Shown: positions 4,226 through 63,771 of the stretch, one piece after another
Position numbering within the stretch: position 1 is the stretch's first letter
Layout: every line of letters begins with the position of its first letter
Source of the DNA: Spizellomyces punctatus DAOM BR117
Taxonomy: Eukaryota
Strand: one strand, 5' to 3'
NCBI GenBank assembly: GCA_000182565.2
Contig: KQ257462.1
DNA: 64,000 bases
The notes under the pieces: generated by a model
Databases searched by the model: none
Told to the model about the DNA's origin: nothing
Seen by the model: only the letters and a program-made list of their open reading frames with translations
Translations under genes and position numbers: made by a program

Positions 4226-5016
4226 TAGTGTGGAGGTGATTGAAAATGGCACTAAGACCCATTATTATCCGGATAATCCGGTTAATCATATCGCATAATC
4301 AGCACCCCCATCTATCGCTCGAAGCGGTGAGGCATGCTAATGTAATGTTCTCCAAACTGCGGTGTGGCATGAATGTAATGTTTTTTTTTCTTTTTCAAAC
4401 TGTGATGAGGCGCATGCTGAAGGTCTATAAAAGGGGGACTTTTCCCTCTTTCCTCTTTATCCATCCTCGACTCGCAAGCATCTGCCCAACGCTCATCGCG
4501 ACCCATTGCAACCTCATAGCGACCCACACAACCTCATCGCGACTCGGTCAACCATGAGAACGCTGATGTGGTGGTGTCGAGGACCTCGACCGCCCGACAG
4601 CAACAGTGATCAGAACCAGCGGCAACCAATCGGATCCGATAACAAAACCTACTATTATGCTGCCACATTAGTTGAGCTTGGTTGGTATGTACCAATGGCA
4701 TCATCTCTTTTCATGTTATTCTGTCACTAACATGCATGTATAGTCTCCAAGTCTTGTCACTGAACATCCTCTGGCTTGTGACGCTGCCCAGTCGATTCGC
4801 TCCTGGATGCAAAGTCTGGCTTCAATGCCATCAAGAGTTCCAGATCAAGGCCTAGTAGGGACCGCGTGTGGTGGTGGGCAATTATCCGGTTAGAACAACC
4901 GTTACGTATTGCGTGTATAATTGCCTATTAGTAGTTAGTTAACTTTTCCGAACCGGTTGTCGCCGGTTTATTCCCTGGTGTAGTAGCTAGTGCCAGTTTC
5001 TGTCACCTCTCCACTA
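4226..5016 (+). mobile_element. Non-autonomous Fanzor-associated TIR element ('ghost' locus / MITE), copy 1
   Basis: ~30-bp imperfect TIRs (TAGTGTGGAGGTGATTGAAAATGGCACTA ... TAGTGCCAGTTTCTGTCACCTCTCCACTA), TA at both ends, CATA at 4224-4227. Both ends are shared with the copy at 11507-11720. Confidence 0.85.
4490..4545 (+). repeat. Three imperfect ~19-20-bp tandem repeats (CTCATCGCGACCCA-type) inside element copy 1
   Basis: gctcatcgcgacccattgcaa/cctcatagcgacccacacaa/cctcatcgcgactc. Confidence 0.7.
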
Positions 5017-11085: not shown

Positions 11086-11491
11086 CTTCACAATTGTAAA
11101 ATTGCCCAAACCAAAGATAAGATCGTGACTCAACCCGATGGAAGGAACAAGGTGTCTACTTGGGCGAGAATGTGAAAATCGGTTGCGATTGCCTGGGACA
11201 CATCACGCATGCAAACAATGTGTTCGTGGGAAGATGGGCATGTGCTGCCTTAATCGACGCGTGTGCAATTTGGTGAAAGATAAAGTTTCTAGAAGCGATG
11301 GTGAGGTTGTGTTTGAAAATGCGAACGCTTCTCTTCAAACGTGACGCTATAGCGCAAAGGCCCGCAATGGGCCAAAATGGTGGCAGGTAAAAACAGTGTT
11401 TTCGGAGGAATGCTCTACGATAGTGCGGCTGGCAAAAGGCAACGTGACGGTCGGATTCGAACCCCGACCCCCATTTTTCATTCTCCGATGA

Positions 11492-11582
11492 ATTTTAGAT
11501 GTTCTTTAGTGTATTAGAGTGACAGAAAATGGCACTAGCTACTACACCAGGGAATAAGCCGGCGACAACCGGTTCGGAAAAG
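11492..11582 (-). ncRNA. Putative Fanzor omegaRNA, copy 2 (guide AAGAACATCTAAAAT from flank)
   Basis: CTTTTCCGAACCGGTTGTCGCCGGCTTATTCCCTGGTGTAGTAGCTAGTGCCATTTTCTGTCACTCTAATACACTA on the minus strand. Confidence 0.72.
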
Positions 11583-11720
11583 CCAAGTAATTCCCTCCTT
11601 ACAACCAACTACCACTAGGCCCAATTACACATGCAATACATTACGGATTATGCGATATGATTAACCGGATTATCCGGATAATAATGGGTCTTAGTGCCAT
11701 TTTCAATCACCTCCACACTA
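11507..11720 (-). mobile_element. Fanzor-associated ghost MITE, copy 2 (internally deleted, ~214 bp)
   Basis: Reverse complement of copy 1 ends: ~75 bp left end essentially identical, CATA at 11722-11719, right end with omegaRNA-like scaffold ending CACTA at 11507. Confidence 0.85.
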
Positions 11721-21981: not shown

Positions 21982-22527
21982 ATGGGGGCTGAATTCTTTT
22001 TTTTTTTCTGTTGGAGTCTTTTTCTTTTTTTGTTCTTGGTTTTGTAGATATCTCTTTTTGCTTTGCTTTTTGTTTGCTTTTTTCTAGGGTTTGTTTTTCT
22101 TTTGGATACCAGAGGGTGGATAGTTTCAAACGCGGATGTCCCTCACACACTGTCGTGTTCTTTGCTTTTAGATTTAAGATAGTTGGCCACCAGTTGGATA
22201 AAACGCTGGTGATTATGGAACGAGTAGTAAGAGACTTGATGTGTAGCAGTAGCGTATATCATCTCTTTTTTTCGTGAACATTGCCTTTACACTTTTTCTT
22301 CAACCAACTGGTTTTTGGTCAGTCAGTCTTTCCGAGTGGTACTAAAGGGCTCAACAAGTTTTTGACTTGAAGTACATTATCAGAATGTCAGAACTCGGTA
22401 AAGTGAACACCAAAGACAGAAAGTTTCTGCAAAAGTTCAGCGGTTCTGCCACAGTGAGCCATGGATAAAGTTGGGGAATAGTCGCAATTATGAAAATAAA
22501 AAAAAACGGACGAGACCAATATGGGAG

Positions 22528-22611
22528 TCCGGCTTCCCAGAGTCGAACTGGGGACCCTTAGATTCCTGAGCAATTACAGTCTAATGCTACTACCAACTGA
22601 GCTAAAGCCGG
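22528..22611 (-). tRNA. tRNA-Tyr(GUA) with ~10-nt intron
   Basis: CCGGCTT/AAGCCGG acceptor stem (C1:G72, A73), TAGCTCAGTTGG A-box, TTAGA-CT-GTA-A-[intron]-ATCTAA anticodon arm, GTTCGACTC T-loop, downstream T-run terminator at 22506-22498. Confidence 0.93.
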
Positions 22612-60865: not shown

Positions 60866-62142
60866 CTATTTAGATGATAGTTCTGATCCAATTTTATCTA
60901 CACAGTCAATGCGAGGTCAGGTAAGCTCTGCGTAAGCAGCGAAGTCAAGCCGAGCACAGTACTTACAGGTAGCAATAGAATCCCAATTGATCTTGTTACG
61001 CGTTATGGGCAATGCTCGACGTAATCCTTTGAAGATACCCTCGGAGAGATCGGCAAACTTGTCGCTTAACGCATTTTGAAAATCAGCTTCGGCTTTAGCA
61101 ATTTGCTTGATAGCAGCCGTGGCAAATGCTCGCGGGTCCTACAGATTAATATTAGATGGAATTGAAAAACTCAATAGCCATATGTGGTATACGTACTGAG
61201 GACGATCCAATGTTTACTGTCAGGTCTTTTGACGCCGTGAGTTGCACATTTCCATCCTCGTAGTAATGGACGTTCACCCTCACGAGTCCCTTCAATTCGC
61301 TTGAACCAATCTGTGTCGTCCAAATCGACCGCCATCGCCCATTCCTAACAAATTGTTTGAGCCGATTCCTCAAGTTCGTGCATAGTTGTATCATCTACCA
61401 ACCAAAAGTTGTCCGGATTGTATTTGTTGCCCACAATTTGCAACACAAGTTCATTTCCATCAAAAACAGTTGCCACCCCGTTTGGATAATGCTCTGCAAT
61501 ATACTTGGCGGCGGCCTGATCCAAAGCGTCTCTTCAATAGACAATGAGCTTTAAGCATATGATACGTATCAGCCAGAGAACATACCTGTAAGGTTCTGTC
61601 TCAGCATTACGCTCTACCTCTTCCGCATCAGAGGTTGTCTATATATGCACCATTTAGACATATCGAAACAGAAAAAGTGCTGTCCCAGACGGTATTTCAC
61701 CTGCCGGATGTGGTCAACGTAAAAGGTTTGGGATGACCGAGGGTCCAGATACCGAGTTTCATCCACCTTTCCGTACTTTGACAAAATGACCTAGGTATTG
61801 CAGAATTTCATTAGTCGCCGTAGTTGGTCTGTCTGCAATGAGGTCTGTCTGCAGTGACCGTCTTTAGCCACCTGGTGTTTCTGCCCAGGAGGAGTCACGG
61901 TTATGAACTGCTCCAGGTTGTATTCTTCAAATATGCTCGCCACTCCATTTTCCAGCAGAGATTCATCGTCTACCAACACTCGCACGTCTATATGCAGTGT
62001 AGGAATACGTCAGTGCCGGGTGCGAAGCAGCGGGCAACTACCAGCTCTTACCATTGAAAACATCGTTTAATTCTCCAGGTGGACTGTCAAGCAGAAACCC
62101 CGACACAATGCTCAATTTCGCATCGTTACTCAGTTCTGACAT
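60866..62142 (-). CDS. CAP1: F-actin capping protein alpha subunit
   Basis: FLLDSPPGELNDVFNDVRVL, NGRWRSIW, VNVHYYEDGNVQL, FKGLRRALPITRNKINWD. Confidence 0.95.
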
Positions 62143-62244
62143 GTTGCCGTGCCAATAGAAAACGCGGAATGGGGTAGAGTTCACTGTCGATGCAAGCTGC
62201 AAGATGGCCGCCGCAGAGGCAAGACGCGATTGAGTGTTTCGTTC

Positions 62245-62775
62245 TAATCAGCGGATTAATCCGGCTTAACCATGTTATAATGTGCATTGTTTTTGGTCAT
62301 CATCATCATGAAGATAAACAATAAAGTCAATTATTTACAATTATTGCCTTTGCGACAGCTGAGGTCTGGGACCTTATCCTGCGGCGCTTATTTTCTATAT
62401 ATGGCCCCATTCTCACTATCTCCTCCCTTCTTGCTCTTTTACCCCCAACTCACCGCAAGCAAGTCAAGCATGACCGAGGACCTCGCCCTCCCGACAATAA
62501 CAATGGGCAAGGATTGCCTTGCAATGCTATCACTACTATGCTGCTGTGATCACAGGTATGTCTTTGTAACATGCTTATTGTCTGTCGAATTCTGGTTTAC
62601 TAATATCAGAACATCCTCTGAACCCAGTAGGCCTCGGAACCTGGCCTAAAAGGATTTCTCGTGATGGTGGGCGCTAGTTACCCGGATAGACCACTCGTAA
62701 TGTGCATGTGTGAGCCTAGTTCATACTTAGTTCGGGTTGGTTGTCGCCAGACCCCAGTGGTTCGAATCCGCATTG
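62245..62775 (+). mobile_element. Diverged relative (copy 3) of the Fanzor ghost element, lacking recognisable TIRs
   Basis: Collinear blocks shared with 4265-4970: CGGAT(T)AATCCGG, TATA, CGCAAGCA, CGAGGACCTCG..CCCGACA, ACTA(C/T)TATGCTGC, GTATGT intron, GAACATCCTCTG, GGCCTA, TGGTGGGC..CCGG, GGTTGTCGCC hairpin. Confidence 0.7.
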
Positions 62776-62996
62776 GTGTACTGTATTGTTGTTTTAACTG
62801 CTCATTGCCATACTACCACAAAGAAACGGTATTATGCGATAAGCACAAGAATCGTGGTATGTCTGCGACCACAGGAGTTGTTGCACGCATGATAGGTCAC
62901 AAAGATTTATTTATACTCTCCCCTCACATCTCACAGGATAACTACATACAATCCGCCTCGGGAGCAGTTGAGCAGAAGCCAGCGAATTCCAAACCA

Positions 62997-63695
62997 TTAA
63001 ATGGGTTTAATCTTAAAGTGTAGCGAGATCAGTGAGAAGACCAAGCATTTTAGATCCTGGATTAGGTAGTAGAACACCCGTAGTCCTTCGGGGTCCTTGC
63101 TCTCTTGGACATCTACGAGGGAGCCGATCTTTGCCGTCTGATCAAAGGTTACAGATGAGCATATTATAAGATGACTTGTCATCCGAGCAATCGCAGCGTT
63201 AAATACTCACGGTGAATGATATGTGTTCTTTGCCCATCACGATCTCAAGCTCCTGTCGTCCAACCCGGTCTGGAACAGGCCACAGTTTGTCGTCCTCCCT
63301 AAATCGCAACAGTACACCCGAATGTCAACAACTTGTTCTACCACGACGCACCCAGCGACAAACGCTATTTCCAAGATCTCTGCAATACGCACTTTAGGAT
63401 CTCACTGTCGGTGACTATTCTCTTCAACTCCTGAATCAGCGATGGGCTAACGTACACCTCCTTTCGGATTAAAGTGTCGTTTTTGTAGTTCGAGGAGTTG
63501 GCATATCGTAGTTTGCCGTCCGGCCTAAACTCGAACTCGAGGAACTCATGTCCAAACTTGCCAATGTGGCCGACGCTGATGCGAGAATGGATTCGCGATG
63601 TCAGCAACAGATCTATGTTATGGCTGTAATGACATACGCAGGAGACGGAAAGCTTACTAATATCGAACATAAAGCTCTTCTTCTCCAGTGGCCAT
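62997..63695 (-). CDS. MAGO: Mago nashi (exon junction complex core)
   Basis: [83 protein letters not shown]. Confidence 0.97.
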
Positions 63696-63771
63696 TTCGT
63701 CAATCCAGGGGTGAATATCTGCTGGAGCGATGCTTTGGCAGGCGTTAATTGCCAACAACTAAGCAGTCCTT

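Follow-up and report, generated by a model that had tools for sequence, protein, structure and literature searches.

Does a fungal locus that carries the hairpin of a Fanzor guide RNA still make use of it, or does it only record a time when a transposon did? The question was raised by a stretch of Spizellomyces punctatus DAOM BR117 DNA lying between the genes for the F-actin capping protein CAP1 and mago nashi, in a 64,000-nt portion of contig KQ257462.1, G000:C13:372001-436000, that was analysed as a whole (the window). The original prediction described positions 62245 to 62775 as a highly diverged third copy of an element (copy 3) that lacks TIRs but retains the omegaRNA loop on a re-paired stem, and it proposed selection on RNA structure, either in another Fanzor subfamily with other ends and another TAM or in a domesticated noncoding RNA. 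Both neighbours were correctly named (PF01267 and PF02792). If the RNA were domesticated, the host would have retained a Fanzor guide after the death of the transposon, a case of eukaryotic omegaRNA domestication.

Most of the systems with which copy 3 can be compared are known from S. punctatus itself. Ghost Spu-1 elements and their ghost omegaRNAs were described by Saito et al. (2023, PMC10432273), together with the omegaRNA of SpuFz1, an expressed small RNA of 88 to 90 nt that is bound by Fanzor and guides cleavage. Three Fanzor1 families, among them the SPu-1 Fanzor1 element, had been reported from this species (Bao and Jurka 2013, PMC3627910), and 126 ghost scaffolds (gst1 to gst126) are given with lengths of 74 to 76 nt (PMC13434818). 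Dozens of Fanzor ORFs of 627 to 655 aa, with ends matching the published Spu-1 layout (PMC10432273, PMC3627910), were found in the genome.

Judged by its sequence, the stretch from 62247 to 62818 on the plus strand is an entire but eroded ghost Spu-1 element. In a search of the genome (24.1 Mb in 38 contigs), the interior at 62474 to 62711 matched at least 39 other loci at 66 to 73% identity (E values from 2.5e-26 to 1.4e-15), a lower bound, as 40 of 63 candidates were scored. The collinear blocks noticed earlier between copy 3 and copy 1 reflect true homology, although it is weak by blastn: default settings against the window limited the match to copy 1 to one 31-nt block (E 0.005), whereas a permissive local alignment scored 94, a value reached by 0 of 300 shuffles. 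The match to copy 1 is weaker than that to other copies because the copy 1 interior belongs to a distant subfamily (branch of 0.68 in a tree of 71 interiors). A two-sequence MAFFT alignment of copies 1 and 3 misaligned the 3' part.

Like the ghosts of PMC10432273, copy 3 has the conserved interior of about 550 nt (550 to 600 nt here) without a Fanzor ORF, followed by a 3' region that resembles the omegaRNA scaffold of Fanzor loci, with the same loop in stem-loop 1 and the same stem 2 base. Unlike them, it has no left inverted repeat, CA or CATA, or terminal TA. The 30-nt left repeat with CA upstream, a mark of intact, mobile ghosts, was matched at chance level, and of the right repeat that should end in TA a significant but eroded remnant persists, the TA being gone. 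With the SPu-1 Fanzor1 element (PMC3627910), described as having TIRs and a putative TA target duplication, copy 3 shares membership of the transposon family; it differs in having no ORF. A scan of the window against Rfam returned no hits at the gathering score. The features of the locus are collected in Table 1.

Table 1. Features of the locus and reference elements (window positions unless a locus is named).
Feature	Position	Strand	Remarks
Copy 1	4226..5016	+	Standard ghost, intact, at a CATA site; interior from a distant subfamily; reference
Copy 2	11507..11720	-	Short ghost with internal deletion; reference
CAP1 (F-actin capping protein alpha)	60900..62204	-	ATG at 62142; spliced contig begins (5') at 62204; approximate lower bound
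Type-A-like subterminal left segment	62247..62287	+	Aligns to left part of copy 1 (4/1000 shuffles as good)
Palindrome in type-A-like segment	62252..62264	+	Segment about 48 nt upstream of CAP1 5' end
Type-B-like left interior segment	62267..62400	+	Aligns to left part of L089 (0/1000 shuffles), less well to L004 (57/1000)
TATA-like box	62396..62402	+	Putative; aligned with TATA-like box of other ghosts
Conserved ghost interior	62470..62711	+	ATG at 62470; predicted intron-like stretch 62556-62609
16-nt deletion in copy 3	after 62473	+	Relative to ortholog and ghost family
OmegaRNA-like scaffold, long-linker type	62727..62818	+	92 nt; 5' start eroded
Stem-loop 1	62734..62754	+	Loop unchanged; private C>T at 62737
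Extra linker hairpin	62757..62771	+	Common to subtype; private insertion of one G at 62764
Stem 2 and worn right TIR	62774..62818	+	62774-62780 predicted to pair with 62811-62818
15-nt guide slot	62819..62833	+	Putative; from the layout in PMC10432273
Mago nashi	62870..63700	-	Final coding exon 62998-63137; transcript 3' end near 62870-62919; approximate upper bound
Second Fanzor-like ORF locus	L281:1279-3570 (G000:C7 about 72780-75070)		tblastn, PF07282, structure match

The left terminus is indeed missing, as had been predicted. When the region from 62151 to 62252 was searched with two kinds of ghost left end for a TIR or CATA, the best local matches were equalled in 711 and 749 of 1000 shuffles. 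What is left of this part of copy 3 is a junction between the type-A-like palindrome segment and the type-B-like segment. The palindrome also occurs elsewhere in the genome, and 20 of the 20 other sites examined are ghost left ends; a host-promoter origin of the palindrome was thereby ruled out.

Two alternative readings concern this left part. The locus might be host sequence that supplied the ghost interior, rather than a copy of the element, as the joining of two kinds of left segment, the long branch of its interior and its synteny in a sister genome would allow. We hold this to be extremely improbable, given that its 3' side consists of an omegaRNA scaffold with a worn TIR, that copy 3 bears the derived 16-nt deletion, and that two equally old relatives (L086 and L089) lie at other sites, the latter with its CATA left terminus preserved. 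Alternatively, the RNA part may be dead while the element-derived palindrome and its surroundings were co-opted as a promoter element of CAP1, whose divergent start lies about 48 nt away. Among the differences listed against a related genome (run X7, below), no substitution falls within 62221 to 62264, which includes the palindrome. A clean run of 44 nt was nevertheless obtained by chance in 10 to 19% of simulations at 11 to 12.5% divergence, and a core promoter of any origin would be conserved, so that co-option for CAP1 seems quite improbable.

At the opposite side, the element does not end at 62775, nor is copy 3 devoid of TIRs: the worn right end continues to 62818. The segment from 62775 to 62818 aligned to the right end of ghost L039 better than any of 2000 shuffles, and the part from 62784 to 62818 did so on its own with 5 of 2000 shuffles as good. 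The sequence after the hairpin had been called unrelated to the 3' TIR of copy 1, and beyond 62783 it matched the end of copy 1 at chance level (489 of 2000 shuffles as good); it is not foreign, however, since it matches the L039 end and since the stem 2 base (62774 to 62778) is common to copies 1 and 3. By these alignments, the right end of copy 3 is that of a ghost subtype with a long linker and a TIR unlike that of copy 1, in agreement with the predicted subfamily with other ends. Copy 3 defines this small subtype of scaffold.

The 6-nt linker of the SpuFz1 omegaRNA is replaced in the subtype by a longer one containing an extra hairpin (19 nt, 62755 to 62773, in the 92-nt scaffold of copy 3, in which C6 is also changed). 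A tRNA identity for this hairpin, which has a tRNA-like look, was considered and dropped, as Rfam returned nothing and ARAGORN made no call at the locus. Long-linker right ends with an intact terminus were found at eight other loci, L040 and L041 being one duplicated locus; masking covers part of the long-linker locus L042. The siblings L086 and L089 are older and decayed, with damaged loops, and they share letters of copy 3 in the 3' arm of the stem and after the stem 2 base. Copy 3 joins these two in the interior tree, with branches of 0.49, 0.34 and 1.03 against a median of 0.04, a grouping that may be due to long-branch attraction. Two further candidates were discarded: the 'type D' 3' end seen at L004 has no second copy and is hence probably flank, and L088 is a chance motif hit.

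The prediction of another Fanzor and another TAM for these ends fared less well. A long linker was present in 0 of the 27 scaffolds found at 34 Fanzor loci, a further difference from the SPu-1 Fanzor1 element (PMC3627910), and tblastn detected no Fanzor ORF in the flanks of long-linker loci (no hit at L065). Both of the long-linker relatives with a readable left terminus (L042 and L089) sit at CATA. The subtype has other ends, but shows no sign of another nuclease or TAM.

As a natural ghost scaffold variant from the same kind of genome, copy 3 resembles gst1 to gst126 (PMC13434818); compared by reported lengths, long-linker scaffolds, mostly of about 84 to 92 nt, exceed the 74 to 76 nt of that set. 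In the literature searched, which was not a full survey, neither a long-linker subtype nor a domesticated Fanzor omegaRNA was described, and the long-linker form may thus be undescribed, although a trimmed version of it could stand in the published lists. Extra stem-loops between stem-loop 1 and the guide also occur in the natural Fanzor1 omegaRNA of GtFz1, for which the region beyond stem-loop 1 is, according to the authors, less constrained (Xu et al. 2024, PMC11423790); organism and protein are different there, and the comparison is one of layout.

Several side observations were made on ghost structure. Two Spu-1 Fanzor loci (L126 and L129) carry the TIR of B-type and long-linker ghosts, unlike the usual Fanzor TIR, and in the ghost L005 the stretch running from the intron to the 3' part is tandemly duplicated within the element. 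Along the interior tree, the kinds of left end, interior and right-end module occur in mixed combinations, a pattern suggestive of frequent recombination among the ghost subfamilies.

The hairpin of copy 3 itself is the predicted fold, with the unchanged loop, including the equivalents of U16 to G20 of SpuFz1, and a single bulge. To what extent its pairing reflects selection depends on whether the family or the copy is considered. Among 25 in-register haplotypes, representing 71 of 91 loci (8 of 33 haplotypes, from 20 loci, were dropped as out of register), stem 1 paired in 195 of 200 cells against a shuffle mean of 183, with 0 of 5000 shuffles as high and relatedness of loci left uncontrolled; two-sided changes were seen at four pairs. 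Stem covariation belongs to the ghost family, and the changed stem of copy 3 is mostly inherited. Selection on RNA structure, as originally proposed, is therefore upheld for the family but not for copy 3, as judged from its substitutions, its overall fold and its changed C6.

Private substitutions were counted strictly against seven old or long-linker rows, and the scaffold parts contacted in the SpuFz1 structure were taken as structurally essential. The interior carried 21 such changes in 236 positions and the essential parts 6 in 57 (p 0.80), with the 'terminal 5' region set one base low, at 62813 to 62817 instead of 62814 to 62818. The core from 62734 to 62779 had 1 substitution in 45 positions and one insertion (p 0.22), and a window as clean as the core arose in 60% of 20,000 shuffles. 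When all 14 other rows were used, this looser count gave 0 of 48 in the core against 21 of 236 in the interior (p 0.03); it overstates conservation, since distant rows also match by chance, yet it is the main result in favour of the original prediction. The scaffold values thus vary with definition, and by the strict count the scaffold of copy 3 is no better kept than its interior.

Signs of decay are also apparent in the fold. The private change at 62737 weakens the hairpin to -8.3 kcal/mol, compared with -10.7 kcal/mol with the siblings' letter, and the whole scaffold folds no better than shuffled sequence (z -0.21; 73 of 200 shuffles as good), whereas intact loci of the subtype gave z values of -4.96, -4.07, -4.76 and -3.89; folds of L086 and L089, taken at shifted coordinates, do not enter this comparison. 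Private changes lie at the scaffold start (62727, 62729 and 62730), and the equivalent of C6 (62732) is T. In the cryo-EM structure of SpuFz1, C6 pairs with loop residue G20 (PMC10432273); 88 of 91 loci have C there, and the other three are copy 3 and two damaged copies. Of the contacted residues U5-C6-C7, the outer two are kept in copy 3, and a U-G wobble is possible at the middle one. Counting against decay, the three-hairpin topology of the subtype is still the predicted fold, a terminal T>C turns a G-U pair into a G-C pair, and the loop and the equivalents of U35 and G37 are intact. The stem 2 base is predicted, with a bulge, to pair with the last 5 nt of the scaffold as in SpuFz1.

The age of the insertion was gauged from run X7 of a related genome, in which one 4673-nt contig spans 61850 to 62496, so that the 5' half of copy 3 adjoins CAP1 there too. 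In this one related genome, the 5' half is accordingly fixed at the orthologous site; being old and common to the sister genome, copy 3 is unlike the ghosts described in PMC10432273. The element differed at 32 of 252 nt (12.7%) and the CAP1 intron at 8 of 64 nt (12.5%), with five indels in addition; these counts come from the 40 of 82 differences that were listed, taken as complete to 62329, the rest being deduced from a contig total of 65. On this comparison, the 5' half appears to diverge as an intron does. The ortholog retains the 16 nt after 62473 that are deleted in this genome and present in the ghost family. Coverage of X7 stops at 62716, with mago also uncovered (a filter hole), so that the scaffold lies outside the comparison. 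Judged by copy 3, the ghost family would be older than a split that corresponds to about 12% neutral divergence. Among the best 80 of 296 loci from a metagenome scan with a CAP1 exon, none exceeded 68% identity, and no synteny comparison was possible.

In RNA run X20, the bins specific to copy 3 (62207-62461, 62513-62614 and 62717-62818) had depth 0, whereas the 3' part of mago reached 99 to 268. The run is raw and about 6% of it was read (4740 reads placed); it seems 3'-biased, CAP1 5' exons being empty too, and would miss an unpolyadenylated RNA of about 90 nt. Reads at 62462-62512 and 62615-62716 were partial fits whose loose ends belong to other ghost copies. Run X1 (unspliced, depth 2 to 3, same sequence) was uninformative on expression, and the X6 contigs, from their content of spliced CAP1 and mago presumably RNA-derived, included none of copy 3, although contigs cannot show absence. 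As for the family at large, ghosts are heavily transcribed in X20 (depth 190 to 1900 on shared blocks, against about 250 for mago), apparently from the sense strand if mago guides the direction.

Could copy 3 be immobile and still work? It might do so from its own cassette as an RNA of about 105 nt that serves a Fanzor in trans with the guide at 62819 to 62833, or as a host noncoding RNA. Its fixation at an orthologous site (for the 5' half), a core with one substitution and one insertion that reaches p 0.03 in the looser count, a terminal stem still predicted to pair and the reported function of ghost scaffolds in trans with SpuFz1 (PMC10432273) are what such a role would lead one to expect. 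Core conservation is not significant on the stricter count, however, the fold is no better than shuffles, C6 is lost, X20 has no reads from copy-specific stretches, and distant ghost scaffolds are reported to edit worse than canonical-like ones (PMC13434818). We consider a working omegaRNA unlikely, and equally doubtful is its more specific form, in which the element was fixed before the lineages split and its omegaRNA core kept since, as a Fanzor guide that the host has retained and that bears an additional hairpin in its linker. No sign of host use of copy 3 was found in this analysis.

Copy 3 is most likely an old, immobile relic that no longer works, with an RNA fold reflecting past selection in a mobile subtype. 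It would have arisen when a ghost Spu-1 (Fanzor1) element of the long-linker subtype, itself non-autonomous, inserted between CAP1 and mago, before the split from the sister genome. As long as the family still moved, its right end would have served as an omegaRNA scaffold under structural selection. Such past selection would make stems covary between subtypes, which accounts for a stem in copy 3 that differs from that of copy 1 and yet pairs. Afterwards the copy would have lost its left TIR and terminal TA and, immobile, begun to decay, its 3' half probably drifting neutrally like the 5' half and its scaffold presumably silent as a small RNA.

A different set of ghosts has a right end of 181 nt, found at 27 loci (L130 to L156). 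At L146/L281 (G000:C7), this end directly follows a divergent Fanzor-like ORF with 22.6% identity to the Spu-1 protein over residues 127 to 630 (tblastn, E 3e-17). The ORF scores above the cut-off for PF07282, has SpuFz1 as its best match among solved structures (E 8e-13) and contains two in-frame TGA stops near its C-terminus; in the ghost L022, part of its tail precedes the 181-nt module. Type-A-left ghosts with the 181-nt end occupy ATTA, CTTA or TTTA sites in 18 of 18 copies with an intact terminus, whereas 26 of 28 standard ghosts are at CATA (Fisher p 7e-11, with four other ghosts set aside and copies that may not be independent). The module is probably the omegaRNA of a second Fanzor family, captured by the ghost cassette and associated with a different TAM. 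Against a TTA TAM, the ORF-bearing copy starts at CATA, although its left end is an inverted one of ghost type, and the fold of the module is modest (z -1.67). On balance we lean toward this set, and not copy 3, as the 'other subfamily with another TAM'.

The result on the 181-nt end matters more than copy 3 does. If the target motif of a ghost follows the RNA end of its Fanzor family (CATA or TTA), this would be natural evidence that Fanzor cutting decides at which sites the elements persist. Were the rule to hold, it would render testable the role of Fanzor in transposon maintenance, a question raised in PMC10432273, and would predict the TAM of the second nuclease.

Some further observations were made in passing. 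At its left end (L281:1279-1520), the second Fanzor locus carries the long-linker right end in inverted orientation, with 38 of 40 nt identical, followed by a reversed type-B ghost left interior; end modules are shared or swapped here, perhaps as a bidirectional promoter. L110 (G000:C9:617499-619385 and 622459-624345) comprises two neighbouring older Fanzor copies with 59 to 62% identity to the Spu-1 protein; stops interrupt their reading frames, the loop is a variant one and the right end is cut short. Within the window, copy 2 is closely followed downstream by a stretch resembling a tRNA T-arm (11420-11480, minus strand; no ARAGORN call), and ARAGORN placed a tRNA with an undetermined 4-nt anticodon at 22527-22611 on the minus strand.
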